NCBI RefSeq assembly: GCF_030684315.1 | Contig: NC_081358.1 | Location: forward strand, 3,038,001 to 3,102,000 | Length of the DNA: 64,000 bases | Direction of reading: 5' to 3' | Source: Stegostoma tigrinum | Taxonomy: Eukaryota | Shown: piece by piece, positions 34,495-63,576 of the stretch | How the letters are laid out: the number at the start of each line of letters is the position of its first letter | Numbering within the stretch: position 1 is the stretch's first letter | Program-made: the position numbers and the translations under genes | The notes under the pieces: generated by a model | Databases searched by the model: none | What the model was told of the DNA's origin: nothing | What the model saw: only the letters and a program-made list of their open reading frames with translations

Positions 34495-34600
34495 AGGGCA
34501 GGAGGCGGGCTTGAAACCCTGATCAATATCTCACTGATTGGTTTGAAGGAAGTGAATCGTTTCCTTTTAGTCTCTAACCAGCAGCTGGAGAGAACAGTTG
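34495..34600 (+). promoter_or_regulatory. Putative promoter of type A V (homologues at ~1810-1915 and ~62985-63085)
   Basis: GC-box-like GGCGGG, inverted CCAAT (ATTGG), ETS-like GGAAGT and E-box CAGCTG; ATTGG and CAGCTG are kept in all three A copies; no Ig octamer. Confidence 0.5.
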
Positions 34601-34614
34601 AAGATTGAGCGAAC

Positions 34615-35056
34615 ATGTCGCTGTACTGCTGGCTCATTGCGGTAACCGCTTTGCCCTGTATGTGTTTCTGACGCTATTATTCAGATCCCGCTGTTCGTTC
34701 ACATCCATCACATCGTTCCTTTGTAACCCTGTATATTCTTTCCTCAGGCGGATATTTTGCACAAACACTGAAACAGATTGTCCCATCCATTACCAAAAAT
34801 GTGGGTAAAACCGCTAGATTCAAATGCGAAGTCGAAGGTGCAACTATCAGTGATAGTTATCCCCTTCACTGGTACCAGCAAAAGCCGGGCCAGGCACCCA
34901 CCCGAATCCTCTATTATGGAGCAGGCACAACGCAGGATCCGGGATTTGGTGAACGGTTCAAAGCCGGGAAATCTAACAACAAAGTATTCTACCTCACAAT
35001 CGACAAACTAGAGCCAGAGGACACCGCCACCTATTACTGTGCGTACTGGATAGATA
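34615..35056 (+). CDS. TRGV: TCR gamma V segment, type A copy 2, apparently functional (leader 34615-34657, intron 34658-34747, V exon 34748-35056)
   Basis: Leader MSLYCWLIAVTALP; QTLKQ...RFKC...LHWYQ...DTATYYCAYWID; canonical splice sites. Confidence 0.93.
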
Positions 35057-35095
35057 CACAGTGCAACACATCAATACAAAGTTTGTACAAAAATA
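35057..35095 (+). other. 23-RSS of V at 34.6 kb
   Basis: CACAGTG + 23 nt + ACAAAAATA. Confidence 0.93.
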
Positions 35096-35283
35096 CTGAA
35101 CGATTTGAAGCGAAACATTTCGAGGAATTCACAGACTCCTCCCCTATTTGGGTAAAGTAGCGACGTCACCACAGCTGGATCTGTGTCCGAGCTTCCTCCG
35201 TCTGAATTCGTGACATGGAGAGTGATGTGAAGCCGGCCAGGTCTGGGCTGTTTTGATCCACGTGCTTTTGTTTTCTTTTCCAA

Positions 35284-37625
35284 TCATTTGTGGGGTGTGG
35301 GCATCGCTGGCTGGGCCAGCATTTCCTGCCCATCCCTAGTTGCCCTTAAGAAGGTGGTGGTGAACTGCCTTCTTGAGCCGCTGCAGTCCTCCTGCTGTGG
35401 CTTGACCCACAATACTATTAGGGAGGGAATTCCAGGATTTTGACCCAGCGACAGTGAAGGAATGGCAACATTTGTCAAAGTCGGGATAGTGATTGGCTTG
35501 GAGGAGAATTTTGAGATGGTAGTGTTCTCATATGTCTGCTGGTACTATCCTTATAGCTGGAAGTGGTCATGGGTTTGGAAGGTGCGGTCTGAGGATCTTT
35601 GGTGAATTTCTGCAGTGCATCTTGCAGATAGTACACACTGCTGCTGCTGAGCATCGGTGGTGGAGGAAGTGGATGCTTGTGGACGTTGTGCCAATCAAGT
35701 AAACTGCTTTGTCCTGGATGGTGTCGAGCTTCTGGGCTGCTCTTGTCGCCACCGTGTTAATGTGGTGAGTCCAGTTAAGTCTCTGGTCAATGATAACACT
35801 CAGGATGTCGATAGTGGGGATTCAGTGATGGTGACACCATTGGATGTCAATGGTAGATTGTCTCTTATTTGTGATGGTCATACACTAGCAGTTTGTAGCG
35901 TGAATGTCGCTGGCCACTTGTCAGCCTAAGCCTGGATATTGTCCAGATCTTGTTGCATTTGAACATGGACTGCTTCAGTACCTGAGGAAACATGAATAAT
36001 GCTGAACATCGTGCAATCACTGGCAAACATCCCCACTCTGACTTTATGACGGAGGGAATGTCATTAATGAAGCAGCTGAAGATAATTTATCCTGGGACAC
36101 TATCCTGAATAACTCCTGCAGAGATGCCCTGGAGCTGAGATGATTGACCTCCAACGACCATGACCGTTTTCTTATGTTCCTGGTATGTCTCCAACCAGCA
36201 GAGTATTTGCCCCGATACCCATTGATTCCAGTTTTTCTCGGGTTCCTTGATGTCACACAGTCAATTGCAGCCTTGATGTCAAGGTATGTTACTCCCACCC
36301 ACTTCTGGAATTCAACTCTTTTGTCCATGTTTGAACCAAGGCTGCGATGAGGTCAGGAGCTGAGTGAACTTGGCTGAGCTCAAACTGCGCAGCATTGAGC
36401 AGGTTATTTCTGAGCAGGCGCTGCTTGAAAGCACTGTTGATGACACCTTCCATCACTTTCTTGATGATTGGGAGTAAACTGATTGGACGGTAATTGGCCA
36501 GGTTGGACTTGTCCTGCGTTTTGTGTACTAATCGTTCTTGGGCAAATTTCCACATTGTCGGGTAGATGCCAGTGTTGTAACAGTCCTGGAACAGCTTGGC
36601 ATCTCTTAGCTCTGTCTATCACTTGCTGCTTTCACTGTTTAGCTTGCAAGTAATCCTGCTGGTTGGCTTCACCAAGTTGATACCTCATCTTCAGGTATGC
36701 CTGGTGCTTCTCCTGGCAAGCCCTCCTGCACTCTCCATTGATCCCTTGGCTTGATGGTAATGGTTGAGTGGGGGGGATATGCTGGACCATGAGGTTACAG
36801 ATTTTGCTGGATTACAGTTCTGCTGCTGTTTTTGGCCCACAGCGCCTCAGAGATGCCCACTCTTGAGTTGCTACATCTGTGCAAAGTCTGTCCCATTTAG
36901 TATGGTGATAGTGCCACACAACACGATGGAGATTATTCTCAATGTGAAGGCGGGATTTCCTCTCCACAAAGACTGCATAATGGTCACCCTTACCAGTACT
37001 ATCATGGGCAGATGCAACTGCAGTTGGCAGATTGGTAAGGATGAGTTAAGCATTTTGTTTTTTTCCCCCTCTTGTTAGTTCCCTAACCATCTGCTGCAGA
37101 CTCAGTCCAGCAGTTATGTCCTTTAGGACCTGATCAGTTTGATCAGTAGTACTGCTGCTGAGCAGATTTGATGGTGGACATTGAAATACCCCATTCAGAG
37201 TACATTTTGTGCCGTTGCCACCCTCAGTGCTTCCTCTAAGTGTTGTTCAACATTGAGGAGAACTGATTCATCTGCTGAGTGGGGGTTGTATGTGATAATC
37301 AGCAGAAGGTTTCCTTGTCCAAGTTTAAACTGAAGCCGTGAGATTTCATGGGGTCCAGAGTCAATGTTGAGGACTCCAAGAGCAATACCCTCCTGACTGT
37401 GTACCACTGTGCCGCCCCCTCTGCTGGGTCTGTCCTGCCAGGGAGATAGGACATATCCAGGGATGATGATAGTGGTGTCTGGGACAAAGTCTGTGAGGTA
37501 TGATTCTGTGATGACTATGTCAGGCTGTTGCTTAACAAGTCTGTAAAACAGCTGTCCCAATTTTGGCACTAGCCCCCAGATGGTAGTGAGGAGGATTTTG
37601 CGGGTTTGACATGGCTGTTTCTGCT
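35284..37625 (-). mobile_element. Degenerate L2/CR1-group LINE (APE + RT)
   Basis: QQPDIVITESYL (APE), NYRPISLLP; 3' tail gggcaactagggatgggca..atgctggc..gccagcgatgcccaca. Confidence 0.8.
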
Positions 37626-37719
37626 GTTGTCTTTTCTGATGCCTATATCGATGCCAGATGATGGATATAGTTTCATTTCTTTGAGATTTTGTAACGATTG
37701 GTACAAATGAATGGCTTGC

Positions 37720-38030
37720 TTGGCCTGCCTGGCCATTTCAGAGGGCAATTAAGAGTCAACTACATTGGGCCTGGAATCACGTGGAGGCTAGACCAGGTGA
37801 GGGTGGCAGATTTCCTTCCCTAAGTGACATTAGTGAACCGGATGGGTTTTTCTGACTATTGGCAATGATTTCATGGTGATCAGTAGATTCTTAATTCCAG
37901 ACTTCTTCGAAATTATTGAATTAAAATTCCACGATCTGCAGTGGTGAGATTTGAACACATATCCCCCAGATCTTTTGCTGTGTCTCTGGATTAACGGTCC
38001 AGCAATAATACCACTTGGCCATCACCCAGC
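37720..38030 (-). mobile_element. LF-SINE-like SINE
   Basis: Reverse complement of the element at 39385-39950 (cccatccggttcactaatgtc...agggaaggaaatctgcc). Confidence 0.6.
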
Positions 38031-39299
38031 CTATTTTTAATCCTGCAGTTAGTGCACCAAGGGCTGGCTCACTGTAGCGTTTGTGGTTTTTGCACGGTAG
38101 GACCCGCACTGCCGATGTTGTGGTGATATTTTCCCTGGGCAAGAGAGTGGAGTTATACTGTAAGGTTCTTCCTTCAGTCTATCGAATTTCAGGGCGTGGA
38201 CATACGTACGAGCAGGTGGAGCAGTGTAAATCAGCCAAAAATCAATGGTGAATTTGTTATGGGCGAAGGGGTGGGGAGGAGGTGGATCGGGGAATCTTGA
38301 ATGTGTTAGGCAGCTGTGGTCCCATTGCAACAGTAAAGGGGCTTCAACACGTAACTTCTCATCAGCCAACATCTCAGTGTAACAAAATAATGTTTCTGTT
38401 TTATTTGGAGTATGTTGTGATCTGGGATGTTCTGCTTGACAGAATGGTGGAGACAGATCCAGTAGTTAATTTCGAAAACAAACTGGACAAAAATTTGAAA
38501 TTATACAAGGCATTGGAGAGAACACGGCTGGAATATGGTGTTCTTGCTGTAGAGGGAGTATAAAGTTCAAACAGTACTAGAGAGGTGCACGAAACATGTT
38601 CCTGATGGTGGGGGAGTCTAGAACAAGTAGTCACATTTTAAAATTAAGATCAGATACGGATCTTTTAGGACAGAGATGTGGAGAAACTTCTCCAGCCAGA
38701 ATGCCGAATTGATACCTGCAGAATGTGTTTGAGGCCACAAACATTGAATGTTTACAAGAAGGAAGTAGATGTAGCTCTCGTTGCGAAAAGGAACAAGGCA
38801 TGTGGAGTTGTTGGGGGGAGGGTAGATAGGGAGGACGGGATTAAAGTATTAAGATCCATGATCAGCCAATATCATATTACATGGCGGGGTGGAATGGCCT
38901 ACTCTTACTCCTTTCTTCAGGGATACAGGAACAAGACAATACAACTGATTAGACAACACTTTCAGAGAAACAGAACCGCTAAAACGGTAGGCTGATCAGT
39001 GTCGCCGTTACTGGAAAATTCCACGATACCGTCATGTGTAGCTCAGGCCAACAGTTCCTCGAATCCAATTTACCGCGTTCAGCGCATTTGTAGCACCCTC
39101 TGCACATTGAAATATCAAAAACCCTTGATAATTGGCTCTCTGGATGGGAAAGCTGAGTGGTTAAATTAGCTGCTATTGCTGATATGATCTGCTCGCCCCT
39201 ACCAATCGATGAAGTCATATTCACTGCGTTTTCAGATGACACCCAGAAACACGATTTTCCTGTCGGGATTGTACAAAGACACAGCATCCTGTTGACATT

Positions 39300-40082
39300 G
39301 AAAGAAAATGCAAATCTTTAGCACAGTTTCCAATTTAGGAACGCCTCAAAACACTTTGCAGCCCTTGAACTGCTGTGTGAAAAGAGGACTGTCAGTGATA
39401 TTAGTAGCTACTGACTATTAATCCAGACACCTCAGGTAATGCAAGATAACAAAGTGTGTAGCTGGATGAACACAGCAGGCCAAGCAGCATCTCAGGGGCA
39501 CAAAAGCTGACGTTTCAGGCCTAGACCCTTCATCAGACCCTCTCTGATGAAGGGTCTAGGCCCGAAACGTCAGCTTTTGTGCTCCTGAGATGCTGCTTGG
39601 CCTGCTGTGTTCATCCAGCTACACACTTTGTTATCTTGGATTCTCCAGGATCTGCCGTTCCCATTACCCCAGGTAATGTCTTGGGAACCAAGGTTCAAAT
39701 GGTGGAATTTGAATTCAACAAATATCTGGGATTAAGTGTCTGATGATGACCTGAAACCATTGCCAATTGTTGGGCAAAACACATCTGGTTCACTTAACAC
39801 CGTTCAGGGAAAGAAATCAGGGTCTGGCCTACACATGACTCCAAGCCCACAGCATTGCAGCTGATTCTTAACTGCCCTCTGGGCAACTAGCGATCGTCAA
39901 TAAATACTGGCCTGGTCAGTAACGTCCAGTCCCGTAAATGAATGAAAACAAAGAACAATTTTGGGAACTGCTGGAATTAGGAAAACTGGCAGCCAATTTG
40001 CGTTCAATAAGCTTCCAAAAACAGCAATGTGAGAAATATCCAGACAATCTGTTTAATGACGTTGTTTGGGGGATAAGTATTG
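39300..40082. mobile_element. Three-level nest: Deu-type SINE (-), interrupted by LF-SINE-like SINE (+, ~39385-39950), itself interrupted by a PLE mini-palindrome (~39442-39666)
   Basis: Deu-like halves at 39300-39382 and 39975-40082; LINE-type tail at 39880-39950; TSD caggtaatg around the palindrome. Confidence 0.65.
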
Positions 40083-40120
40083 CAACAGCTACTTGACTTG
40101 TAGATATTTTTTGTTTGCAG

Positions 40121-40411
40121 GTGAACATTTTGCCGAGGTCTTGCATCAGTTTCCAATATCGGTCACTAGGCCCAAGGCTACAACGATCAAAATGCAATAT
40201 GTGGCACAAAACACAGAAACCATCCATTGGTACCAGAGCCGACCCAGCAGGCGCCGAGGAGATTAATCTATTTCAGCAAAAACAGAGCTGTATTGGACTC
40301 GGGAATCCCCTCCAAGTTCTCAGCTGAGAAAAGTGTCTCTTCATTCTTCCTTGTAATTGATAACATTGAACAGTCCAATGATGCCATCTATTACTGTGCC
40401 TATTGGATCCT
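40121..40411 (+). pseudogene. TRGV: TCR gamma V pseudogene, type D (V exon only)
   Basis: tttgcAG acceptor; EVLHQFPISVT...KMQY (Cys23>Tyr)...IHWY, then a 1-nt frameshift near 40233, resuming as EPTQQAPRRLIY...DAIYYCAYWI; no leader exon found, SINE sequence lies immediately upstream. Confidence 0.88.
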
Positions 40412-40451
40412 CACAGTGAGAAACAACCATAAGAAGCTCATTACAAAAACC
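40412..40451 (+). other. RSS of pseudogene V, consensus heptamer and nonamer, 24-nt spacer
   Basis: CACAGTG (40412-40418) + 24 nt + ACAAAAACC (40443-40451). Confidence 0.9.
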
Positions 40452-43400
40452 CCAACGCAGCCGCACAAGTTTCCAGGCCACAAGTGGAGTCTTTTTACTG
40501 AAATTCCAAATCGCAAAATCAAATTCAGAATTAACTTCAATGTCAATATTTAGAGCCGAGACAAATATAACTGGGGATGGTAAGAACTGCTGATGCTGGA
40601 GTCAGAGATAACACAGTGTGTAGCTGGAGGAACACAGCAGGCCAGGCAGTATCTCAGCAGCAGGAATGTTGACATTTCGGTTCGGGACCCTTCCTCAGGT
40701 TAACTTCCCTGCTCCTCTGATGCTGCCTGGCCTGCTGCTCTCCTCCAGCTCCAAAAATATAACGGGGTTTTTGAATTCAAAGACTGGTGTGGAAAAGGGA
40801 ACAGAGCAATTTCGTTCAGGGAATCAATCTCTCTAACGCCTCGTTAGGGTGACACATCTTGAGGAAACCATTTCAGTTATTTGATCTATTGAAATCCGCT
40901 TAGCTCAGTTGACTTTTCTTACTTACGCGGTACACGAATCTGTGAATCCTTGCATCAGAGATAAGGGGAACTGCAGATGCTGGAGAATCCGAGATAACAA
41001 AGTGTGGAGCGGGATGAACACAGCAGGCCAAGCAGCATCTTAGGAGCACAAAAGCTGACGTTTCGGGCCTAGACTGTGTTCATCCAGACCACACTTTGTT
41101 ATCTGCGAATCTTTGCGACCACTGACCTTTTGGTTTTTGTCGTGTATTTAAATGACAGACAATAGTTGTTTTGTTTCTCTTTTCAACATGTCAATTGTTC
41201 TGAATCACTTTGTGCAAATTCTTAAGTGGGAATAAAATTAAATGTCTATATATGATGGATGTTCAGCGCTAATTATTCATTAATTGATGCATCGTTAAGC
41301 AGATCTTCCCTGCTGTATTAACAAATCACTTTTTTGGTGGTAGCTTCGCCCTAGGTATCATTTCCAACCCATCTCTACGCAAGAGGTTGCTTCTGTTCCT
41401 TCGTCTGAATTTACCACTGCACCTTAAGTCTCTTTGAGAAGCAATGGCAACACATCACGAACAAATTCTTGATTTCCTCGATTTTGGAGGAGGCGTTATT
41501 TCCATTATTTCCGCCTGATGTCGACAGAATCAACTTTCTGAGTATTAATTCCAGTAGCTTGCAATCAAATAAACAGGCACCGCAAAAAATTGATATTATT
41601 TCTAAATTCCAACCTGCTTTATAAGGAAAACGTGGTCGACGGTTGATCAATGGCATGTTATCTTCGTTGATTCCTCAAGTGCATAATTAAGAAGCAGCGC
41701 CTTACAGACTCATTACAAACAGTTCACATGTAAATCTCCGAAAAGAGTTACGTTCCCATGTGCCTTTCCGGAATCCAAAGCAAAATCGGGTGTGTTCACA
41801 CCGTCCGATAATGTTCCTCCAGGGTTTGAGGCACGTTGCTTTCCTGTGGTTTCTGGAGTTTAGGGTGACGCGTGGCCGTGCCAGTGGGAACAGTGCTCCC
41901 AATCACCATGTGGGGGTTTGTGGTGGAGAGTAGCAACATGAAGCCAAAATTCCCTTCAATACTGCACCCTGGTGCGTAGGAAGTTGAGGGGTGACATTAC
42001 ACAAATTATTAAAATCATCGGGCCGTTCAGAGAAAATACGTCTCCTTTCCCCAGCGAGGAGGATTCCAAGACTAGAGGGACTAGAAGACGAGAGGTGACA
42101 GGAAAAATGGTGATTGGGAGCACTGTTCCCACTGGCACGGCCACGCGTCAGACTAAACTCCATAAAAGTCATGAGAGGCATTGTTTTAAAACACAGAGTG
42201 TGGTCCGTGTGTGGAATGAACTTCCAGAGGAAGTGGTGAATGCGGGTGCAGTTACAACGTTTGAAAGATATTTCGATAAGTACATGATTAAGAAAAGTTC
42301 GGAGGGATATGGGCCAAGTACAGGTAAGTGGGACTAGTTTTAATCTGGTATTATGTTCGGCATGAACTGGTTAAGCCGAAGGGTCTGTTTCTGTGCTGAA
42401 TGATTGTATGACTGATTTTTATTCGCATTTCATTTTGTACAGGCTGTTTACTTAACCACGTACCGGTGGGGTTACGTGGAGTCTGCGGCTACTGAGTGTC
42501 TGCTGTGATGTTCAGTTTATTGCATCGGTCATTTGGTAAATCAGCAATGAACATGTTATGTACTTGACAAGAGATCAGAATAACCAGGACCTAGAGTAGA
42601 CAATCCAGCTCCTTGAGCCTACTCCGCGATTTAATATGGTAATGACTCATCTCATCTCGTCCTCAAATCCACTTTCCTGTCCGATCCCCATAATCCTTTA
42701 ACGTAGTACTAATTTCATATCTCTGTGTCCGACTTAGAAATATATTTAGTGTCCTGGCGTCCAAGCACTCTGGGGTGGTGATTTCCAACAGCCTTTGAGA
42801 AAAACAATTCCTCCTCCTTCAGTTCCGCTCTGTGTTATGTCTGACCTCAACATCTGCAGTTCTTACTATCTACTCTGCATTTCTATTTGAAACCTGCCAC
42901 CCACTAATCTAAATCCGTGATTTAATTAAACTGCAATCTCCACTGCACCCCCCTCCCAACCCTGTCCTTCTAAAGTCTAGAGAAGATAGATCCTGACTGC
43001 TCAATCTGTCCTCATAAAACAAACGTTTCAATTCTGGAATTAGTCTTATGAACCTTCTCTGAATTGCCTCCAACACAATTATATCATTCCTGAAGCCAGG
43101 GTATTAAATCTGTGGATACAATCTCACCAATGGCTTTGTACAACTGCAACAACAACTGATTTTATGCTCCATTGTTTTAAGAATAAATGGGAAACATTAC
43201 TTGTCTTTCTTATTACACGTGCACTCGAACATTCAGATCCCATTCCACTGACGAATTTTGATGTTTCTCTCCATTCAGATAATAAGTTGCCTTTTTATTC
43301 TTCTAACCAAGATGAATAACCTCACGTTTATCCATGTTTAGCTCCACATGTAGAATTTTTGTTGATTCCATTCAGTTTACTATATTTAGTGTTATCCCAA

Positions 43401-44750
43401 ACTTCTCTTATTAACTGTGAAGGAGAATACAGATGCTGCCAGACCTGCTGTGCTTTTCCAGCAACTTTGTTTTTGTTCTTCATTTCCAGCATCTGCAGTT
43501 CTTTCGGTTTTTATTTTCTCTTATTAACTGCCTACCACATCTCTATATAGTCTGTCTCATTCAATCATAAGCTGACTCTCCCACTTGCTGGGATGTCCCA
43601 GCATATAGCATATCCCTGGCAGCAACACCACCTTGAAAACACAGCCGTGCATCCGGTCAAGTGTGGTAGTCCAGAGTTGCCCTTAACCATAATTGCAGTG
43701 ACACAGCAGATAGAAACCAATGTTTCGTTCACGGCATATAGGTGGTATGGGTGACATTTCCATCGGCACATTCCTGTACATGTGGTTGCTAAGTGACAGC
43801 CCCACATATCTCGCTGATTCCTAGCTACATACCATCTTTAAAACCTCTCTAAATCAATGGCGTGCTTTCCTGAATGCCCGTTGTAACCTTGAGTCATATC
43901 AAAGATCAATATAGGAGATAATGACAGAGGAAGGAAAAAGTTAGGAGCCTGAGAATGAGAGAGATAACGACAGTAAGAGCTGCACATCTGGTCGAAAGAA
44001 TCGGCGGTACTTTCATCATATAAATTAGTTTGAAAAGCCAAGAATGATGTTGAAGAAGGAATCCTAGCTTTGGCAATAAAATGTTTGATCTGAACAGTCA
44101 AAAGAATGATTTCGGGTCAAAGGAGTTTATGGGCAAGTTCTAAGCAACTCCGGTCAGACTACATCGAATAAATTTACCATCTCATGTCACCCAGACAAGG
44201 TATACTGGAGTCAGTGACAAGAGGTGTCACAAGATTGCTTTCGGCTGTTAGCGGTTTGAGCTACGCATAAAAATTGAGGGTATTTTCGGTTCTAGGTTCA
44301 GGCAGGGTTTGCAGTGGGACAAAGAAATCTTCTCCACATGTCCAAAATTGTTATTAGAAAAGGAGTGGTAGATCTGAGGGTTCTTGTGGTGTAGTGGCAG
44401 TGCCCCTATCTCTGTACTTAGAGGTTAAGGTTCAGGTCCCATCGACTCCAGAGTGAATGATAACAGCTCTGGACAAGTTGATGAGATGCTGTTTTCAATT
44501 AAATTGCTGGAATGGGGCAAGAAAACGCTAGAAAACCTGTAAGAGAGAAACGTCTCGGGTAAAAGTAGAAAGTAACTTGCACAGCGAATGATCATCTCTT
44601 GCAATGGAGTACAGCGCAACATGGTTGAGGTGACGGACAGATTTTAGTGAAATTGTCAATAACAAGATGAATAACAAGATGAAAACACCCACCCATTCAA
44701 ATGAATGTCATCCTTGAGGCCACACGAAGGCTCGGCATTGAGTAAAACCG

Positions 44751-44770
44751 ACTGACGTCATTTCCGGTAT
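44751..44770 (+). promoter_or_regulatory. CRE (TGACGTCA) plus ETS-like TTCCGG ~70 nt upstream of the type B pseudogene ATG
   Basis: TGACGTCA at 44753-44760; CRE-like elements are typical of TCR V promoters; the paralogue has TGACATCT at 11223. Confidence 0.55.
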
Positions 44771-44829
44771 TGATTTGGCCCCTTGAAGGCTTTCAGCAAA
44801 TCCGAACCAGCTCTGTGTTGACTATCAAC

Positions 44830-45759
44830 ATGAAGGGTCACGTCCTTGCGATTTTACTAACCGCTCTCCTCGGTCAGTACATTAGGTTTCAACAAATTAT
44901 TTCCATTGTTTAACGTGGTCTCCGTATTCTTAAATAACCTGATCTACATTTTTTTCGCCGGCAGCAAAATCTGTCGCTCAAACGTCACTCAGCCTCCAGT
45001 ATCATGACCAGAGCTCCGGGGCTCACAGTTTGGTTGGACTGTAAGTAAGAAGGGAGCGACTTCGACAATGCGGTTACCCACTTGGGACCAACAGATCCCG
45101 GCTCAAGATAATAAAGTGTGGAGCTGGATGAACACAGCAGGCCCAGCAGCATCTCAGGAGCACAAAAGCTGACGTTTCGGGCCTAGACCCTTCATCAGAG
45201 AGGGGGATGGGGTGAGGGTTCTGGAATAAATACGAAGAGAGGGGGAGGCGGACCGAAGATGGAGAGAAAAGAAGATAGGTGGAGAGGAGAGTATAGGTGG
45301 CGGGGTAGGAAGGGGATAGGTCAGTCCAGGGAAGACGGACAGGTCAAGGAGGTGGGATGAGGTTGGTAGGTAGGAAATGGAGGTGCGGCTTGGGGTGGGA
45401 GGAAGGGATGGGTGAGAGGAAGAACAGGTTAGGGAGGCAGAGACAGGCTGGGCTGGTTTTGGGATGCAGTGGGGGGAGGGGAGAGCTGGGCTGGTTGTGT
45501 GGTGCAGTGGGGGGAGGGGACGAACTGGGCTGGTTTTGGGATGCGGTGGGGGAAGGGGAGATTTTGAAGCTGGTGAAGTCCCGGGTCAAGGTCTTCAGTG
45601 CATTTTATGTTTCAAGAATCCATCTGAGACTCAGCAAGATGTCACCGACGAAGTAGCACCCGCTGAAAGAAAGCAATCTGCGGCCAAAGCCTGCAGCTTG
45701 CTCATGAGGAATATCACGGAGGATGACTCTGGGTTTTTTTTTCCTGTGCTTTCTGGGCT
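44830..45759 (+). pseudogene. TRGV: TCR gamma V pseudogene, type B, disrupted by frameshifts, a stop codon and a Penelope insertion
   Basis: Leader MKGHVLAILLTALL (44830-44872), acceptor at 44964. Relative to the 11.4 kb paralogue: 1-nt deletions in FR1, TAT>TAA after Cys-Lys, PLE insert at 45108-45578, poly-T corruption of YYC. Heptamer degenerated to CACCATG (45760-45766). Confidence 0.9.
45108..45578 (-). mobile_element. PLE family 1 3' fragment inserted in a V exon
   Basis: Near-identical to the 16/20 kb arms; 12 bp TSD tcccggStcaag at 45096-45107 and 45579-45590. Confidence 0.9.
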
Positions 45760-46539
45760 CACCATGACTGTCAGTCGGGGAAAAACTGGACAGAATGCAG
45801 TCGCCGTCCTGCGGACTGTTTACAAACTGTGAAGACACAAATGGCAGGTGTCGCGTTTGGAGAGTTTCGCCAGCTTTGAACTCCACTCTAGGCCGCACAG
45901 ACAGTTCGTTGTTTTCACAATGCTCTTTGTCTTGTTAAACTTGGGAGAATAAGTTATGACGATCTAACTGTTCTATAAAATGGACGTAACCATCCATTTA
46001 CTATTTAAACAAATATCTCTGTTCATTTACCATGTTTGTGAAAACCCAACAATGCGGTTTAAAGCCTCCTGCTGTCAAACGATCGTCAATGAATATGTCA
46101 CCGAAACTAACATACCACATCCAATATATAGTCACATCCAAAATAATTAGAAAAGGTTCTTAGAGTCTGTTCCCACTGACAGCGAATTCGTGGCGGGTCT
46201 GTGATCTAATTCCATTTACCAACCGTGGATCCGCATCCGCAAACCGCACGGAATGCTGTGGGGATACTGCTACAAGTTTAGCAATTTAGATCCCTGGACT
46301 GAGGCCTTGGATACAAATTCACATACGACTACGGTGGTTGAGGGGTTAGATTCTTAAAAGTTAAACTCAGTAATGCAATGAAACTACTGGATTGTACTGA
46401 ACACCAGTGGAGTTTACAAGTAACCAGTGGTCAATGAAATTTGCCATCCTAGGGCGAAACCTATCACAAGGCAGTATGTTTGTTTCCGGCTCAGCATGAG
46501 CCAACCAAAAAGTTTAGTTTCACCTTGAAGAGGGCAGCA

Positions 46540-51769: not shown

Positions 51770-54700
51770 GGCCTATTCTTCGTGAAAAGGGTCCTGCTGG
51801 ACTGCTGTGGACATGTACTGCCTGCAGGATTTCCCCGGGGGAGGATTTTTTGACGTAACCTTGGGGGGGGGGAGAGCCTCCTAGTAGTGGATGTCACCTA
51901 CAAGAACGATCCCCTGAGGCTGATCAGCGTGTACGCCCCAGCGGTACGGAATGAGCAGTTGGCTGTCCTGCAGCGGCTTCCACCCCTGCTGGCTATGTCC
52001 AGGCCGGTCACCCGAGCCGGAGTCTTCAACTGCATCATCGCTGCAGATGGAAGATCTGGCATGGGGAAGTAAACTGGACGTCATGTCCAGATTCCGGATG
52101 GGCACGGTGAAGGACACCAAGCTGCTCGACACCTTCAGCACCACTGCAGACGGACCGCAGCGGAGATACACCTGGTCACAGCCAGACGGGTCTATCCACT
52201 TAAGAATAGACTTGCTGTTTGTGTCGCGGGCGTTCCTGGTCGGGTCCACCGGAATCGAGCAGGTGTTCTTCTCTGACCACTGCCTCCTGCTGGCTGACTG
52301 TCACTTACAGGATGACCAGCAGGCCGGCAAGGGGACGTGGAAGCTCAACATCACTCTGTTGACCTCAGAGAACATCGGGGAGCTCAAGAGGGAGTACGTT
52401 GGTTGGAGAACCGTGAAATCCCTCTTTGACTCTCCGGGCAACTGGTGGGAGATGGTCAAGGATAAAATCAAGGGGTTCTTTGTCCTCAAGTGTGTTTGGA
52501 AGGTGAGAGAGAGGCGGGGAAAGCTGTCACGTCTCCAGAAAAGGATGCAGAACCTGCTTCTTCTTCAGTCAATGGGGGTTGATGTCACAGAGGACCTCCG
52601 CAAGGTAAGGGGACTGCAAGCCTCGCTGTTCGCTGCACAGGCCTCCAAGATAATCTTCCTGTCCAGAGTCCGCTCCTTGCATTTCTTCTTTCAGAAGGTG
52701 CACAAAGAGAGCTCTGTGCTTAGCCGGCTGAAGGAGGACGAAGGCTCGGTAATGTTGTGTCAGTCTGACATCCTGAGGAACTATGCCGGACTGTACAACA
52801 CGAAGCCCACGGACAGTGCCGCCTCCGAGTTGTTCCTGTCTACACGGGAGGTCTTAGCCCTCGGCACGCGGGAGTGGCTGGACCGGCTAATATCCCTGGA
52901 CGAGCTGACCGGAGCCCTCAAATCCTCTGAGGAGCAAGACTCCCGGGAGCGACGGCTTACCGGTCGAGCTGTATTGTACTCTGTGGGACCTGGTCAGCCA
53001 GGACCTGCTGGAGGTGTACGACATTGCACGTCGGGCAGGGGAAATGTGCACGTCCATGAGGAAGGGCATCATCACCCTCATTTACAAGAAGAAGGGGGAG
53101 AGGGAAGAAATTAAGAATTGGTGTCCTATTTCATTATTGAACATGGACTATCATGTCCTGGCCAAGGTCATAGCCAACCAGGTCAGGTCTGTCCTCGAGT
53201 CGGTGATTCATCCTGACCAAACCTGTGCTGTGCTGGGCAGGAAGATCGCTGAGAGCCTTGCGCTCATCAGGGATACGATCACCTACGTACAGGACAGGAG
53301 GGTGGACGCCTGCCTCGTCAGCCTGGACCAGGAGAAGGCCTTCGACAGGGTCTCTCATGCTTACATGAGGGACGTCCTCTCCAAATTGGCATTCGGGGAG
53401 GGCATCCGCAATTGGATCCGGCTGCTCTACACCAACATCGTTAGCGTATTGATGAGCGTGCACCTGTGGACCACATCTTCTTCGTGAAGAGGGTCCTGCT
53501 GGACTACTGTGGGTTTGCTGCTGTGGTCTCAATCAACAGGTGGGAATTGAACAGTTTTCCCGTCAGATCTGGAGTCAGGCAGGGTTGCCCACTCTCTCCT
53601 ACCTTGTTCGTGAGCTGCATGGAGCCCTTCGCCGCATCCATCAGGAAGGACGTGAGCCTGAAGGGCGTGACTATCCCAGGCAGCGGAGGCCTGCAGGTCA
53701 AGACCTCCCTGTACATGGATGATGTCGCCGTCTTCTGCACCGATCGTCGGTTGGTGAGTAGGCTGTTGGACATCTGCGGCCAGTTTGAACTGGCCTCGGG
53801 TGCCAAAGTCAATAGGGGTAAGAGCGAGGCCATGTTCTTCGGGAACTGGGACGACCACTCCTTCATCCCCTTCACCGTCAGGACAGACTACCTGAAGGTG
53901 CTGGGTGTTTTGTTTGGTGGAGCTGGGGCGTGCACTAAGACTTGGGAGGAGCATATCACCAAACTGAAGCAGAAGCTGGGCAGGTGGACGCTCCGGTCCC
54001 TCTCCATCGTGGGCAAGAACCTGGTTGTCAGGTGCAAGGGGCTTTCGTTACTGTTGTATGTGGCGCAGGCCTGGCCTATTCCCCGCATCTGCACCGCTGC
54101 GGTCGCCCGGGCCATCTTCCACTTCATTTGGGGGTCGAGGATGGACCAGGTCCGCGGGGATACCATGTACAAAGACCTGGAAAACGGGGGAAAGGGCGTT
54201 CCGAATGCCACCCTCACCCTGATGGCTACCTTTTGTGTGTGGCTGCATCAAGCAGTGCGTAGACCCTCAGTACGCAAACACCAAGTGTCACTGCTTACTG
54301 AGGTTCTGCCTGTCCCCGGTGTTGCAAGGGATGGGCCTGGCGTCATTGCCGCGGAACGCTCCAACTAGTTGGACTGTCCCGTACCACCTGTCCTTCGTGG
54401 AGAAATTTTGGAAATGAAACACCTTTGGCCACAAGGCCGTCAGGCAGTGGTCAGCACGTAGTATCGTCGAGACCCTTCCGGAAAAGGAGAGGGTGGATCC
54501 CGTTGTGTGGTTCCCCACGCAGACTGCCAAAGTCGTTTGGCAGAATGCCTCATCGCCAGAACTTTTAAACAAGCACAAGGACATTGCTTAGCTGGCGGTG
54601 AGAGGGGCTCTGCCAGTGAGATACGCCCGGAATCTCTGCGCCACTGCACGCTGCCCTCGAGGTGGCTGCGGGGGTGGAACGAGACTGTCGATCACCTCCT

Positions 54701-56083
54701 TCTGGAGTGTGCCTATGCGCAGGAGGTCTGGAGGGGGATGCAGTGGTATTTGTCGAGGTTCGTCCCGAGAAGCTCCGTGACGCGGGACTCCGTGCTCTAC
54801 AGGCTGCTTCCCGGGACGCACACCGGGACCAACATCAAATGCGCCTGGAGGACCATCAATGCGGTGAAAGACACTCTTTGGTCTGCCCGCAACTTGCTGG
54901 TCTGCCAGCTGAAAGAACTGACCCCGACCGAGTGTTGCAGACTGGCGCACTCCAAGGTCCAGGACTACGTGCTGAGGGACGCGCTAAAGCTTGGGGCAGC
55001 CGCCGCCAAGGCGCGGTGGGGAAAGACCACGGTATGAAACCCTTCGGCCGCAATGTAACAGGGGCCCTATTCGGTAACTGGGTCCCGCTGGAGCCTTCCC
55101 CAACTGCTCAGGAGGCCAACGGGGACTGTGCAGTGAGATGACCGCCGGGTTTTGTTTTGTTTTGTTTTGTTTTCCTTTTAGTTGGTGTACGTACTCCCAG
55201 GGTAGCCCGGAGCGGCTAGCATGACGGGGTAGGTGTGAGATGTTAATGTGATAATATCCCATTGATTTCTATACTTCTATAAATTAGTCTTTTATCTGCA
55301 TTTGATTCCTATACAGAGACTTTAATTGATAGAAGTAAACTCTTATCTACCTCCACATCGGTATGCAGGCACTGCCCTGAAGCTTCCTGCCCAGCTAGGA
55401 ATTCAGTGTAAAGCTTTTGTAACTCCTGATCTTCTCACACATCGGTATGCAGACACTGTCTGAAGCTTCCTGGCTGAATTAAAATTAGAATTAAACTGTT
55501 TCAAATAGGGTTAGGTGGGGAAATTTTGGAAAGGTGTGAAACCTCTAAAGCATGTAATTTCTGTCACTGACACAGGGGCCAGGGCACTGATTTTGTTCTA
55601 GCCAGACATACTGGCAACTTGAAATCACAATCTGTCCCGGACAACAACTCGAAATCGCCTCCTGCCATTAGCAGCTACTTCACTGGCAATCAATACTATA
55701 TCCTGGTCTTTTATGTTGTTGGATGTAATAATTGCTTGGTATCCTGTTTTTGTCAGTTGTAGTAATTGTTTTATGTATCATGTCATTGTAAATTGTGAAA
55801 TCGTTTTATGTATCATGTCTTTTGTAAAGTAGAAAACGCGGGGACTGTCCGCTGCTCGGGGAGAATTACTTGCGAGACTCTGCACTCTGTGCACTGTTGA
55901 GTACAATGATTCTCCATGGCTTGTACTTGCTTGGTAATAAAAGGATTTGTGTTTTTCTAAACAGGTCAGTGTCTTGTTATTGCAACAAGTCTGTGAGGGT
56001 CTCCAAAAACGAACTTGACAGGTGTATGAATGTTTATTTTTTGTACATTCTCTGAATAAAGTATATTTTTTTAAATAAAAAAA
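51770..56083 (+). mobile_element. Tx1/L1-clade LINE, 5'-rearranged, with long 3' UTR and A-rich tail
   Basis: RLISVYAP, YTWS..RID..SDH (APE), LDQEKAFDRV, GVRQGCPLSP, LYMDD, ETVDHLLLEC zinc knuckle; AATAAA and A-tail at ~56055-56083. Confidence 0.9.
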
Positions 56084-56974
56084 TCAAGCATTTTTGCAAT
56101 TTGGAGGTTAAATTAATGGGCTAACATCAACCATTTTTTGGTTACCTCAATTTTTTTAAAGCGTGGTTTCATATCTATTGTTTTACAATCCTCCGGAGCT
56201 GCTCCAGAATTCATTGAATTTTGATAAATTATCACGAACTCATTGGCCAGAAAACTTGTCAACATTTAGCCCTATTCACATGTCAACACCACATCTTCAG
56301 TGATAATGATTATTTCGAGGTCCTCACCCACCATTGCCTCCTTGTCATTAGTTATTGGCAGGTTATTTCTGTCTCCACTGTGAAAACCAACACAAAATAC
56401 CTGGTCTGTGCCTTGGTCATTTCTTCCTTTCCCATTATTAAATCCGTCTTCTCCCCCACTAAAGGACCAATACCTACCCTAGCAGTTTGTGTTTCTTTTT
56501 TGGTTTTTGTATTTGTAGAAATTGTTCTGAGCTAATTCAATCTCATTATGTTACCTTTCTTTATAGCTTTATTTGTGGCTTTCTGTTGACATGTAAACAT
56601 TTTTCACTAATTTTTGTCACTTTGTATGCTTTAACTTTTAATTTCATACACTCCTTTATTTAGTTAGTTTTCTGCAGCTGGTTATCGATTTTCATGCAGC
56701 CCTTCCTCTTCACTGGTCTATGCTTCTGCTGAGCACTGTGAAAAATCGCTCCGAAGTCTTCCACTGTTCCTAAATTGTCCCACAATGTAGTTTTTGCTCC
56801 GAGTCAACTTTAGTAACATCCTTCCTGATCCAACTGTCTCCTTTGTTTAAGAACAAGTCACTAGTCATGGAGTTTACTCCTCACCCTCCATCTGTATTTT
56901 AAATTCAACCAAACAGTGACTGCACCTTCGCAGTGAGGTTAAAATTGTGATCAGAGGTAATTGGAACTGCAGAC

Positions 56975-58410
56975 CTCATGCTCCCCAGAGGAGCTCGAAC
57001 AGTTCATCCACTTCACCAACACCTTCCACCCCAACCTCAAGTTCACCTGGACTATCTCTAACACCTCCCCCACCTTCCTGGGCCTCTCTGTCTCCATCTC
57101 AGGCAACTACCTAGAAACCGATATCCATTTCAAGCCCACCGACTCCCATAGTTTCCTAGAATACAACTCCTCCCACCCACCTTGCTGAAAAAATTACATC
57201 CCCTATTCCCAATTCCTTCACCTCCGCTGCACTTGCTCCCAGGATGAGGCATTCTCCTCCCATATATCTCAGATGTCCTTGTTCTTCAAGGACAGCACCT
57301 CCCCCCAGCCCCCCACAGTGGTCGACAGTGCTCTCGACTGTGTCTCCCGCATTTCCCGCATGCCATCCTTCACACCCGCCCCCACAATAACCGCCAAAAG
57401 AGGATCCCCCTCGTCCTCACATACCACCCCACCAACCTCCAGATACAACGCATCAACCTCCGACACTTCCGCCGTCTACAATCCGACCCCACCACCAAAG
57501 ACGTTTTTCCATCCCCACCTTTGTCTGCCTTCCGGAGAGACCACTCTCTCCGTGACTCCCTTGTTCGCTCCACACTGCCCTCCATCCCCACCACACCAGG
57601 CACCTTCCCCTGCAACCGCAGGAAATGCTACACTTGCCCCCACACCTCCTCCCTCACCCCCGTCCCAGACCCCAAGATGACTTTCCACATCAAGCAGATG
57701 TTCATCTGCACATCTGCCAATGTGGTATACTGCATCCGCTGTACCCATTGTGGCTTCCTCTACATTGGGGAAACCAAGCGGAGGCATGGGGACCGCTTTG
57801 CAGAACACCTCCGCTCAGTTCGCAATAAACAATTGCACCTCCCGGCCTCGAACCATTTCAACTCCCCCTCCCAATCCTTAGACAACATGTCGATCCTGGG
57901 CCTCCTGCAGTGCCACAATGATGCCACCCGAAGGTTGCAGGAACAGCAACTCATATTCTGCTTGGGAACCCTGCAGCCCAATGGTATCAATGTGGATTTC
58001 ACAAGCCCCTACCCCCACTGCATCCCAAAATCTCCCCTTTCCCCACTGTATCCCTAAACCAGCCCAGCTCGTCCCCGCCTGCCTAACCTGTTCTTCCTCT
58101 CACCTATCCCCTCCTCCCACCTCAAGGCGCACCTCCATTTCCTACCTACTAACCTCATCCCGCCCCCTTGACCTGTCCATCCTCCCTGGACTTGACCTAT
58201 CCCCTCCCTACCTTCCCACCTATCCTCTCCTCTCCACCTATCTTCTCCTCTATTCATTTTCGGTCTGCCTCCCCCTCTCTCCCTATTTAATTCAGATCCC
58301 TCTCCCCATCCCCCTTTTCTGAAGAAGGGTCTAGGCCCGAAATGTTAGGTTTTGTGCTCCTAAGATGCTGCTTGGTTTGCTGTGTTCATCCAGCTCCACA
58401 CTTCGTGATC
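56975..58410 (+). mobile_element. Degenerate PLE family 1 copy
   Basis: EELEQFIHFTNTFHP...VYCIRC..LYIGETK; hammerhead remnant ~58319. Confidence 0.88.
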
Positions 58411-59401
58411 AGTGATTTCACCTCGCTAGACGATCCTTTCTGAAGAAGGATCCAGGCACAAATCGTCGACTCTCCTGGGCCTCTGATGCTGCCTGGCCTG
58501 TGTTCCTCCAACTCCACATTGTGTTATCCCTACCAATGAGTTCCTTTACTATTCCTGTTTCAACATACAGGACCAGATCAAGACAGCTTTTTCCCTCGTT
58601 AATCCTCTTCCATACTGTTCGAGGAAACTAGGGCAGATACATTCTCGGAACTCCTCCTCAATCTGGTTTGAATGACTTGGTTTGACCAATCAATATCCGG
58701 ATTAAGATCTCCCATGATAATTGCAGCACTATTTTTACAGACAAATCCTTTGTTTATTGCCCACCCCACCGACATGGAATTAGTTGGTGGCTGATGAACT
58801 GCGCCTATCAGTGAATGATCATTTGTACCCCGAATGTAGATTTTGTTGGGATGTTTGCCGTAGATTTCCTACTGGGAACAGCAGGATCATGAACAACAAC
58901 TTTAGTTAAGATGATTAGGAGTTCAGAACATATATTTCTTTGCCAATATTTCGGGAATCCACCCTTCGAGAGAATGGAGCGAATTCACTGTCAAATTTGA
59001 TAATTTTTGTTACAGTTGCGTCTGCTTCACTCCTCGCCCCGCCCACTCCACTCACTGAGTCTACCCGCGCTCACCTCCCAGTCTAGTGCAAGTGAGCAGA
59101 TTAACTCGGAGCAACTTCTTTAAAATTTACAACCCGAAACGGGATTTTAAATTAACACTTCCCGTGTCTGTGAAAGCAAAATAAACCAATGACAAACACG
59201 GAGAATAAGCGGTCTCACATTTTATGAAGGAGCATTAAAGTGGGCGGGTTCAATTTATGCTGAGAGCGGAAATTCCCGCCGTTGAGGGGCGGGGTTGGTG
59301 TGGGGTTGGGGGTGTGGGAGAGGCAGAGGAGATCTCGCCTCCTTTATAGACATGACCCTGAGCAGCAGTAACCCAGTACCGAGCGAGCCGGTCACTGCAC
59401 C

Positions 59402-59822
59402 ATGTTCCGGGTAATTGTGGCGCTACTTTTGTCCTGTGCGTATTTAAGTGTCTTTACTGAAGTTTACTTAGTTGCCAGTCCTTCATTCATCATCGTTTAA
59501 AACGTAACTTTGTTAATTTTATTTTCCCAGATGTGCGTTTGGCTGAGTCTATAACACAGTCACCGATATCGTATGTAACCAAGCTCGGTAAAAGTGCCAG
59601 GTTTAAATGTACCGTAGACAGCGGCAGCACCACGGTCCATTGGTACCAGCGCCGGGAAGGTCAGGCGCCCTCCAGAATACTTTATTATGGCAGCAGCGTC
59701 GTACGGGATCCGGAATTCGGCAGCAGGTTTAAAGCGGATAAGAGGAACACTTTGTGCACTTTGATCATCAATAACATCGAGAAGGAAGACGCTGCCACAT
59801 ATTACTGCGCCTATTGGGACAG
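59402..59822 (+). CDS. TRGV: TCR gamma V segment, type C copy 2, apparently functional (leader 59402-59435, V exon 59531-59822)
   Basis: Identical to the 29.5 kb gene except one CDR2 base (GAC>GGC, D>G, 59690). Confidence 0.92.
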
Positions 59823-59861
59823 CACAGTGTTCAACAGAGACTGAAAGCCTTTACAAATACA
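59823..59861 (+). other. 23-RSS of V at 59.4 kb
   Basis: CACAGTG + 23 nt + ACAAATACA. Confidence 0.92.
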
Positions 59862-60004
59862 CGGCGCTTCAGCTCGGTCTACACTCAGCTCCCACACCAA
59901 CAACACCAGCTTGCATTTATAAAGCGCCTTTAACGTAGGAAATCGTCCTACTTAGTCTTGGAAGATACAGCATTAAACAAATTTTAATATGAAGCTTTTA
60001 ATAC

Positions 60005-61625
60005 ATCATCGAATAAAAACCGAAAGAACTACTGACGCTGTCAATAAAGAACAAAAACAGTAGCTGCTGAAAAATGCTCAGCAGGTCTTCCAGCATCTGT
60101 GAAGAAAAATCAGAATTAACTATTCGGGCCGAGTGACCCTTCCTCAGAGCTACGATAGTTGGGGAAACGTCGGTTTATGTGCAGAAAATAAGGCTTAGAT
60201 GGGGTCGGGAGTAAACGAGAGGATCGAGCATGAAAAGAGCAGTTGGATAGACAACGGAGTTGATAACGATCTGGCTAAGAGGGTGAGCAGTTGTTACAGG
60301 AGACTGTTAGTCACTAACAATAGGTAGTGTGTAATTGCAGGCTACGTGATAACAGGGCCTGGTGTGTGCGGTAGACAGCTAGGTCATGGGAGAGTCTAGG
60401 CCCTAAAATTATTGAACTCGATATTGAGCCAGGAGGGCTGCAAGGTCCTCAAGCCGAAAAAGAGGGAGTTCTTCTGGGATAATCGGGACTGCAGATGCTG
60501 GAGAATCCGAGATAACAAAGTGTGGAGCTGGATGAACACAACCGGCCAAACAGCATCTTAGGACCAGAAGGGTGAAGGGTCTGATGAGGGGTCTAGGCCT
60601 GAAACGTCAGCTTTTGTGCTCCTAAGATGCTGCTTGGCCTGCTGTGTTCATCCAGCTCCACACTTTGTTATGTCTCTACTTCTTCTGGCTTCTTCTGAGC
60701 TACACTGGAACACTGCAGCTAGCTTGAGACTGAGATGTTGGCCAGGGAACAGAGTGGTGTGTTAAAGTGGCAGGCAACAAGTAGTTCAGGGTCATTTTGA
60801 AGGCAGAACGTGGGTGTTCTGGAAGCCGGCAGCCAGTCTATGCTTGGTTTCCCCAAAGTAGAGGAGATCACATTGTGAGCAGCCAATGCAGTAGACTAGA
60901 TTCTGCAAATTGCAGGTGAATTGTTGCTTCACATTGAAGGTATGTTTGGACCCTTGAATGGTGGGGTGAGAGGAGGTAAATGGGCAGGTGTTACACCTTC
61001 ACCAGTTGCAGGAGAAAGTGCATTAGGGCCGTGGGGTGTGTTGGGAGTGAAGGAAATGCGGACCAGGGTGTTCTTGAGGGAACTGTCCCTGCAGAAGCGG
61101 GCTAGGGAGGGTAGGTGAATATGTGCCTGGTGGTGGCATCACACTGGAGGTGGCAGAAGTAGTGTCTGATGATCTTCCCGATGTGGATGCTGGTGCGATG
61201 GTAGGTGAGCACAACGGGAACCCAATCACTCTTGAGGGAGGGAAGAGTAGGGGTGAGGGCGGAAGTGCGGCAGATGGGTTTGGTCGACACGCAGCTGGAG
61301 AATCCTCGTCTGAGGAAAAATGTGGATTTTTTGGAGGCTCCCTTGTCGAAGTTGGCCTCATCTGAACATATGTGACAGAGACGGAGGAACTGAGAGTATG
61401 GGATGGAGTCTTTACCAGAAGTGGGATGTGATGATGTATAGTCCAGGTAGCTGTGGGAGTTGGTGGGTTTATAGTGGATATTAGTGGCCAGTCTATCCCC
61501 CAAAATGGAAGTAGAGATGTCAAAGAAGGGATGGGAGGTGTCAGAGATAGACCAGGTGATAGTGAGGGCAGGGTGAAATTGGAAGCGAATTTGATGGACT
61601 TTTCCAATTCAGAACAAGAGCAAAT
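60005..61625 (-). mobile_element. Older PLE copy with nested mini-palindrome (~60478-60671)
   Basis: HYKPTNSHSYLDYTSSHP...IPYSQFLRL on the minus strand; TSD ttcttctgg around the nested hairpin. Confidence 0.8.
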
Positions 61626-63099
61626 GTCTGCTTGAGGCGGGCTCTTTGTTTTCAATTGTGAGGGATCACTTTGGGTATGACATGTGTTAGCATGTAAATC
61701 CACTTTGAGTTCCGGCTTTGATTAGAATGAGATAGGAGGTTCTAGAGAACTTCATGAATCATTTACGATCTATTTTCACATTTTCTTAACGAAAAAATGT
61801 GGTCAGGCTAAAAGAGCAGTGAGTTAAACTGCAGAAACACGCACTGATGCAGCACACAGTTTCCATAAAAATGCAACGTAGCTGAACCAGCATTAACCCG
61901 GCGGCCACATCTGGAAACAGAATCGGACAATGGCCCGGTAAAGGCCAAAGCAATCGGGATCATTCAAGGATGGGAATTGGGAGCAGACTTGGCACAGGAG
62001 ATGAGCGGGCACCTGGGAAAATTGGGAGTGGTGAGACCAGGAGTGGAATGTGCAAATAGCAACGTGCATGTCAAAAACAGGCGATTTCTCAATTCGAGTA
62101 ATGTCCTGTCCTCGTGACGCGCAATGTATGAAGACCCATTAGGCTTGTTGAGTTAGAGTGTTACCTGGGAAATTTTTGCTGGGGTGGACTCATCCAATGT
62201 TGGCTCAATAAAAGATCGTTGACCTGTGCCGGGAAGACTAATGTTATTACGTGCAATAATCTACCACAACAGCATGAAAAAAGACAAACATTCTGATACT
62301 GTCCAATTCATTCCAAAGTTAAAAAATAATAGGTCCAATAATTTTGATTTACATTGCCTTGAGTTTAGATTATTAAGATTCGATCTAATTGAGCTATTGT
62401 AATTGAGAAAGAGTCGGTGGGGGGGGGGAGCGTGAGGGGATTGTCTGGAACGATTGAACAAAATCTTTATTTAAAAAAAGAACGCTGTCGCTCAGAGATG
62501 ATTATAGTTAGCACTAAACAGTGGCATTAACTTCGCCTAAAACGCTAAGATGTTCAGGATGAAATTAAACTTTAAGGGTCCCGACAGGAACGTCAAATTT
62601 CCTGCTCCTCTGATGCAGCCTGTCCTTTTGTGTTCCTCCAGCTCCACACTGTGTTGTTCATGATTCTGCTGTCGCCGTTTCCACCTTCACTGGGCCCACC
62701 TTTTGTTTCTGTTCACTTTCCATTACCATCACCGTTCCCTTTGCCCTCTCATCCCTCTTGTTATTTAACTCCCCTTTCCTCCAGCCGGTCACAGACTTCC
62801 CTTTTGTTGAAAGCTCCCCCTTCCCTGTTTCCCTGCCTTCTTACGGGCTTAACACTCTGTCAATGTCTTAACGCTTTCCTGCTCAGGTCTCTGAAGTGTT
62901 AACTCTGTTTCTGTCTCACCAAAGTTGCTGCTTCAGTATTTCCAATATTTTCTGTTTATATTGCAAAGAACCAACTTGCAGTGCAGGGGGCGGGCTTGAA
63001 ACCCTGACCAATATCTCACTGATTGGTTTGAAGGAAGTGAATCGTTTCCTTTTAGTCTCTAACCAGCAGCTGGAGAGAACAGTTGAAGATTGAGTGAAC

Positions 63100-63537
63100 A
63101 TGTCGCTGTACTGCTGGCTCATTGCGGTAACCGCTTTGCCCTGTATGTGTTTCTGACGCTATTATTCAGATCCCGCTGTTCATTCACATCCATCACATCG
63201 TTCCTTTGTAACGCTGTATATTCTTTCCTCAGGCGGATATTTTGCACAAACACTGAAACAGATTGTCCCATCCATTACCAAAACTGTGGGTAAAACCGCT
63301 AGATTCAAATGCGAAGTCGAAGGTGCAACTATTACTGCCACTGATCCCCTTCACTGGTACCAGCACAAGCCGGGCCAGGCACCCACCCGAATCCTTTATT
63401 ATGGATCAGGCGCAACGCGGGATCCGGGATTCGGTGAACGGTTCAAAGCCGGGAAATCTAACAACAAAGTATTCTACCTCACAATCGACAAACTAGAGCC
63501 AGAGGACACCGCCACCTATTACTGTGCGTACTGGATA
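63100..63537 (+). CDS. TRGV: TCR gamma V segment, type A copy 3, apparently functional (leader 63100-63142, intron 63143-63232, V exon 63233-63537)
   Basis: QTLKQ...RFKC...LHWYQ...DTATYYCAYWI; canonical splice sites. Confidence 0.93.
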
Positions 63538-63576
63538 CACAGTGCAACACATCAATACAAAGTTTGTACAAAAACA
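63538..63576 (+). other. 23-RSS of V at 63.1 kb
   Basis: CACAGTG + 23 nt + ACAAAAACA. Confidence 0.93.

Follow-up and report, generated by a model that had tools for sequence, protein, structure and literature searches.

In the nurse shark, the V1 family of T-cell receptor (TCR) gamma genes is known from cDNA clones, which, according to section 5 of PMC5931798, were sorted into groups at 85-90% identity with no germline locus for reference. In the sandbar shark, as far as the available text of PMC7349638 describes it, the gamma locus (TRG) holds five V, three J and one C gene in a single V-J-C translocon, with one gene per V family, a 23-type recombination signal sequence (23-RSS) on the V segments and a 12-RSS on the J segments. 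The subject here is a five-copy family of gamma V genes (TRGV) in the carpet shark Stegostoma tigrinum, analysed in a window of 64,000 nucleotides (C5:3038001-3102000 of the assembly; C5 coordinates are used for sites outside the window), with the V-J-C arrangement read in the 264 kb around it. The setting is the carpet shark gamma locus, which has the same translocon plan as that of the sandbar shark, but instead of single-gene families contains ~18 V segments or fragments in repeated cassettes, with four J segments (12-RSS; C5:3132.2-3133.4k) and one C gene, whose exons at C5:3135.2-3140.3k match nurse shark C gamma. It thus resolves a germline array for a V family met in the nurse shark as cDNA. 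No D segment was seen in an RSS scan of the locus, no separate search having been aimed at D segments. The reading we favour, at a probability of roughly 0.68, is that gene conversion has remade the scaffold of this V family whilst selection has kept its old CDR1 and CDR2 (complementarity-determining region) loops, reshuffled between the copies.

The family is labelled A, the letters A to D having been coined in this analysis. Copies A1 (C5:3003237) and A2 (C5:3022837) lie upstream of the window; within it are a copy lacking Cys23 (position 1930), A4 (34615) and A5 (63100). The four intact copies, A1, A2, A4 and A5, are mutually 96-98% identical. A4 (34615..35095, forward strand) comprises a leader (34615-34657), a 90-nt intron, a V exon (34748-35056) and a 23-RSS (35057-35095); A5 (63100..63576, forward strand) has the same parts, with the leader at 63100-63142, the V exon at 63233-63537 and the 23-RSS at 63538-63576. 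Both have a split leader and the conserved Cys23, Trp41 and Cys104 (C41, W56 and C112 in precursor numbering), of which Cys23 is changed to Tyr in the Cys-less copy, and the V-set domain scores in Pfam were 5e-17 and 4e-15. The V domain of A4 is 85% identical to P0003, a nurse shark 'T-cell receptor gamma chain', and nurse shark TCR gamma proteins of the V1 family (P0003, P0061, P0062) show 85-88% identity to A4 with the same leader type, matching the gamma V1 primer MSLYYWL of PMC5931798. The V domain of A5 is 100% identical to P0002 of Stegostoma tigrinum itself. Furthermore, in contigs of run X5 the V end runs into J segments of this locus with differing junctions, indicating rearrangement in lymphocytes; the main contig is A1-like. 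Foldseek returned V-set folds (VpreB, lambda V) with no TCR gamma among the matches listed, a comparison in which a gamma V is not separable from a light-chain V. A near-length homologue search gave no match at E<=1e-20, longer-length searches yielded the eight shark records used below, and a representative-set search added, P0002 aside, no relative above 59% identity. The A-family members are germline TCR gamma V genes of one family, situated in old duplicated cassettes. Records P0002 and P0004-P0008 carry the public annotation 'immunoglobulin light chain-like', though they are TCR gamma chains.

The age of the cassettes is evident from the spacers between the genes. Unique spacer blocks find matches only at cassette-equivalent places and at 67-75% identity in nine of 11 blocks, the two excluded being a repeat and a block inside a homogenised flank. 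In families A, B and D, by contrast, the genes and the next 100-200 nt on their 3' side reach 96-98% identity, and this identity ends sharply; the copies of family C are less alike. A1 and A4 agree at 97.7% over 771 nt, D1 and the frameshifted D copy at 97.5% over 486 nt, and B2 and B3 at 98% over 1470 nt. Around A4 the homogenised tract runs from the promoter to ~200 nt past the heptamer (34452..35257, forward strand); the identity of A4 with A2 likewise extends to +200, and 5' of the tract identity falls to 70-77%. Amongst the intact A copies the introns differ at 1-4 of 90 nt, and the RSS with its 3' flank at 0-2 of 130 nt. Contigs from other species are further away, differing from A4 at 33 of 472 nt (organism B) and 39 of 521 nt (organism C). 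The residues A9 and V94 are common to the four intact copies, and E103 to all five including the Cys-less copy, yet none of these occurs in any of the eight other-shark proteins, a set of proteins and not of whole loci, in which the nurse shark entries span V-J junctions and could include somatic mutations. Paralogues that appear older than the species thus share species-specific states, as expected under concerted evolution, the background supposed in an earlier interpretation of this DNA from its letters alone (the sequence-only reading).

Trees built segment by segment are incongruent along the gene. The leader and first framework region (FR1) place the four intact A copies together (bootstrap 80), whilst the CDR1-CDR2 segment places A5 with nurse shark P0061 (bootstrap 82). 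Because the spacers are old (67-75%) and the genes are 96-98% identical, and because the trees shift along the gene, germline gene conversion is well supported. Repeated conversion of this kind probably homogenised the A genes, although unequal crossover would leave similar traces. Of 13 informative events among the intact copies, the first nine unite A1 with A4 and the last four give other splits (runs test, p=0.023), with the switch lying inside CDR2. Cassette history was dropped as the source of the A1+A4 split, the A1 and A4 cassettes being ~30% diverged. Two short-read contigs that might have been taken for conversion alleles, one in run X1 (an A1/A5-type 3' end joined to A4 flank) and one in run X5 (A1-like, with T32), were not used, as each may be a paralogue chimaera.

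Near-identity of tandem copies could in principle arise in assembly, through mixed paralogue reads producing false identity or mosaics. One assembly was examined, without alleles, and two family B genes in it are identical over ~400 nt. We give this explanation almost no credence. Contigs assembled from the short reads of run X1, though such contigs may be chimeric between paralogues, keep variants of the A4, A5 and A2/Cys-less types apart, and in a comparison across species, mixed reads could not give rise to species-specific states common to the paralogues.

Against this uniform scaffold the differences between copies are concentrated in the loops. Exactly 13 coding nucleotides separate A4 from A5, with changes at nine residues (N32T, SDSY to TATD at 49-52, Q59H, A73S, T75A and Q77R), and seven of the nine lie in or beside CDR1 or CDR2, in agreement with the sequence-only reading. 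CDR1, the BC loop, reads GATISDSYP in A4 (34837..34863) and GATITATDP in A5 (63322..63348), whilst CDR2 with the start of C'' reads YGAGTTQ (34915..34935) and YGSGATR (63400..63420), all on the forward strand. The leader and residues 78-116 are the same in both, and the 90-nt intron has two differences, again as had been described. That description did not mention an indel of 4 nt at the 3' end of the V coding sequence (window 35049-35052); the long form is found in A2, A4 and the Cys-less copy and the short one in A1 and A5, and the indel alters the germline start of CDR3. Seven of the nine non-synonymous nucleotide differences between A4 and A5 fall within 13% of non-synonymous sites (p=1.7e-5). 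When all four intact copies are compared, the CDRs, 48 of 345 nt by limits drawn from the conserved Cys and Trp, contain 14 of the 20 variable positions (p=3e-9); residue 77 possibly belongs to the start of FR3, and under strict CDR2 limits 42 nt still contain 12 of the 20 (p=1e-7). Within CDR1, 10 variable nt are packed into 13 nt. In a structure model (predicted local distance difference test, pLDDT, 83), the BC, C'-C'' and DE regions account for nine of the 11 variable residues.

This clustering does not amount to an excess of amino-acid change. The CDRs contain, by hand count, 13 non-synonymous and four synonymous changes against 35:13 sites (p=0.49), and the frameworks four and two, a ratio from which that of the CDRs does not differ (p=0.63). 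Pairwise proportions of non-synonymous and synonymous differences in the CDRs are 0.14-0.23 and 0.08-0.25, giving no rate ratio (dN/dS) demonstrably >1, at low power. CDR1 has four silent changes, more than the rate at silent framework sites and non-coding sites would predict (p=3e-4). Since the ratio of replacement to silent change lies near the site expectation and silent sites in CDR1 are raised as well, what peaks in the CDRs is divergence as a whole and not replacement change. The sequence-only reading had envisaged diversifying selection on the CDRs, taken here to mean that selection recently drove new amino-acid changes there after recent duplications. Strong clustering, the replacement character of 13 of the 17 CDR changes and the A2 loop SHDN, unmatched among the eight other-shark proteins, all fit such a history; the absence of any excess over site expectation speaks against it, as does the age both of the cassettes and of the TATD loop, and we regard it as quite improbable. 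Selection probably acts on the loops by preserving old variants rather than driving new ones.

The age of the loops can be read from other sharks. All nine residues of the A5 CDR1, GATITATDP, recur in nurse shark P0061 and P0062, where TATD is paired with Q59, A73 and Q77, found in this genome on A4. A contig of organism B with an unrearranged RSS agrees with A5 at 26 of 27 CDR1 nt and differs at 14 framework nt, in a comparison that lists 19 of its 21 differences. A5 is thus separated from organism B by one CDR1 and 14 framework differences, and from its own paralogue A4 by six and four (Fisher p=0.007, a test selected after the TATD match was seen). The A5-like sequence of organism B also has Q59, A73 and Q77 of A4, so the pairing of CDR1 with CDR2 differs between species. 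The CDR2 of A4 is one residue from that of P0061 and matches the contig of organism B in all but one of its 21 nt, D50 and Y52 of its CDR1 are present in Hemiscyllium P0001, and the CDR2 of A2 equals that of Hemiscyllium P0004. To judge from these sequences, the TATD loop is older than the split from the nurse shark. The same comparison bears on the idea that germline mutation, perhaps through an AID-like activity, is concentrated in CDR1 and raises silent and replacement changes alike. The silent excess in CDR1 is what such a process would produce, and its adjacent changes resemble the tandem mutations of shark hypermutation reported in the accessible part of PMC7349638. We nevertheless consider a hotspot extremely improbable, for across species the A5 CDR1 is no more changed than the frameworks (one of 27 nt), and the CDR1 of family B is invariant.

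Family B, carried by the same cassettes, provides the main comparison. B1 (C5:3017.4-3017.9k) and B2 (V gene and flanks at 28583..30052, forward strand) are the pair identical over ~400 nt; V exon, RSS and ~118 nt of flank agree except at one nonamer base, whilst the promoter, leader and 5' intron of B1 are far less alike, which places a conversion edge inside the intron. B3 (58527..59996, forward strand) shows a single coding difference from B2, D to G in CDR2; the stretches compared with B1 lie at 29.5-30.0k and 59.5-59.9k of the window. Conversion in this family overwrote the CDRs of a copy otherwise 80-90% alike. Because family B has been homogenised across its CDRs in the same cassettes, something appears to hold the A loops apart. 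That something might be mechanical: in a neutral divergence island, the dense mismatches of CDR1 would block conversion and old loops would persist without selection. The packing of 10 variable nt into 13, the raised silent sites and the neutral ratio of replacement to silent change are all compatible with this. Overwriting across the CDRs of family B, from a copy 80-90% alike elsewhere, is not, nor is the homogenisation found on both sides of CDR1, nor the record of TATD, which has undergone one silent nt change since the split from organism B compared with 14 in the frameworks. A neutral island therefore seems to us unlikely.

Selective preservation on a converted scaffold, the reading preferred here, would work as follows. 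Gene conversion, or repeated unequal crossover, would re-homogenise promoter, intron, frameworks, RSS and near flank; selection would remove those conversions that erase a loop; and old CDR1 and CDR2 variants, likely kept and likely reshuffled between copies, would stand as islands of divergence on a homogenised scaffold, each loop binding a conserved ligand. The closest parallel is exon 5 of the human red and green opsins, where, in the part of PMC3924837 available, old duplicates are likewise more alike as paralogues than as orthologues and a narrow 'peak of divergence', silent sites included, surrounds functional residues. The shark family differs from the opsins in having four to five copies and several loops, in their being reshuffled, and in being known from sequence alone. 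Several results weigh against this account. TATD is the sole clear cross-species loop match, the others differing by one to three residues or being short enough to have converged. The CDR ratio is indistinguishable from neutral (p=0.49) and from the frameworks (p=0.63), so that selection is deduced and not measured. Trees from short segments are weak, those for FR3 having bootstraps of 50-62, and the five-copy adjacency test for recombination is non-significant (p=0.36), though the 171 site pairs include 87 incompatible ones.

The Cys-less copy (1930..2401, forward strand) is an open reading frame and probable pseudogene, with its ATG at 1930 and a weak nonamer. Its counterpart is whale shark P0006, in which Cys23 is retained. 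Because it shares seven states with P0006 (D32, S34, I36, I38, R49, N50 and Q67) and joins that protein in two of four segment trees (bootstrap 79 for leader and FR1, 95 for CDR1-CDR2), it is an old lineage that lost its Cys in Stegostoma tigrinum. The sequence-only reading saw in it one member of a three-way mosaic and a possible donor in patchwork conversion; supplying the intact genes with CDR patches, it would be a germline analogue of the chicken pseudo-V genes. It does have SY in common with A4 and QH, GS and R in common with A5; however, at the 13 sites that separate A4 from A5 it matches A4 at ten and A5 at three, interleaved as for any outgroup and no more than chance would give. An exchange of another kind did take place. 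From the end of FR3 to the RSS spacer (2301..2393, forward strand) it differs from A4 at two of 93 nt, against 102 of 609 elsewhere (scan-corrected p=0.002), and it carries E103, which P0006 lacks; the Cys-less and intact copies have thus exchanged ~90 nt covering the end of FR3 and the RSS. K91-D92, common with A2, and a 42-nt run identical to A4 after CDR2 would also fit a donor role. But S51, Y52, S73, R77, K91 and D92 also occur in proteins of other sharks, H59 occurs in P0006, and at that place an R38-type contig of organism C agrees with A5; mismatches break up the three sites that match A5, and the private changes I10, S17, D37, Y41, L63, N71, H96, F97 and F110 appear in no intact copy. 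The shared loop residues are thus old states, no contiguous tract derived from the Cys-less copy was found in the CDRs of intact copies, and donation of CDR patches is very improbable. As in the chicken immunoglobulin (Ig) light chain locus, at least in what PMC3924837 relates of it in the part seen, an inactive copy takes part in sequence exchange; unlike the chicken case the exchange is germline rather than somatic, and it affects the end of FR3 with the RSS and not the CDRs.

The tracts found in families A, B and D and in the Cys-less copy all include the RSS, and germ-cell activity of RAG in sharks has been described for Ig genes in the accessible part of PMC2193156. It is conceivable, if doubtful, that the locus maintains a germline kit of ancient CDR1, CDR2 and hypervariable 4 (HV4) loops tuned to conserved innate-like ligands and swapped on a homogenised scaffold, with conversion tracts started by RAG at the RSS in germ cells. 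The V exon with its RSS is, on the other side, simply where homology survives.

Tandem duplication, pseudogenes and fragments are features that the locus has in common with V families following birth-and-death evolution, as portrayed in the portion of bioRxiv 10.1101/2024.09.05.611428 consulted; unlike them, three of its four repeated families (A, B and D) are homogenised. It shows, on a small scale, concerted evolution within a TCR V family, a type of family usually described in birth-and-death terms. The process itself is known, and we found no earlier report of it at shark TRG: the literature searched contained no report of germline conversion or of cross-species CDRs there, within a coverage that excluded subscription papers, sandbar shark studies among them, and in which Figure 1 of PMC5931798, a source seen in part, may show these loops. 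Human V gamma chains bind BTNL3 through CDR2 and HV4, according to the available portion of PMC6868513, and the persistence of one loop without change in different shark families suggests that gamma-delta T cells have a conserved, germline-encoded ligand in the oldest lineage possessing them. There is also a consequence for studies of hypermutation in shark TCR genes. Germline copies that differ almost only in their CDRs, and by adjacent changes, would mimic somatic mutants when cDNAs are grouped as in the nurse shark.

The remaining V segments show varied states of preservation. The D-family copy at window 40086-40570 has a frameshift from a 1-nt deletion but retains 97.5% identity to D1, which is intact; in each of the two, a perfect heptamer and nonamer flank a spacer of 24 nt. 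In C3, the C-family copy nearest the J segments (C5:3109726), the RSS spacer is 22 nt. Two broken C-family V fragments lie at window 45004-45740 and C5:3029.6-3029.8k, one of them interrupted by ~470 nt of other sequence. The most distal V (C5:2994.3-2994.7k) belongs to a separate family and has an open frame without a recognisable RSS directly after it. Finally, inverted repeats of 490-650 nt and 98.5-99.8% identity at window 15965-18397 and 20215-21233 are probably young mobile elements.

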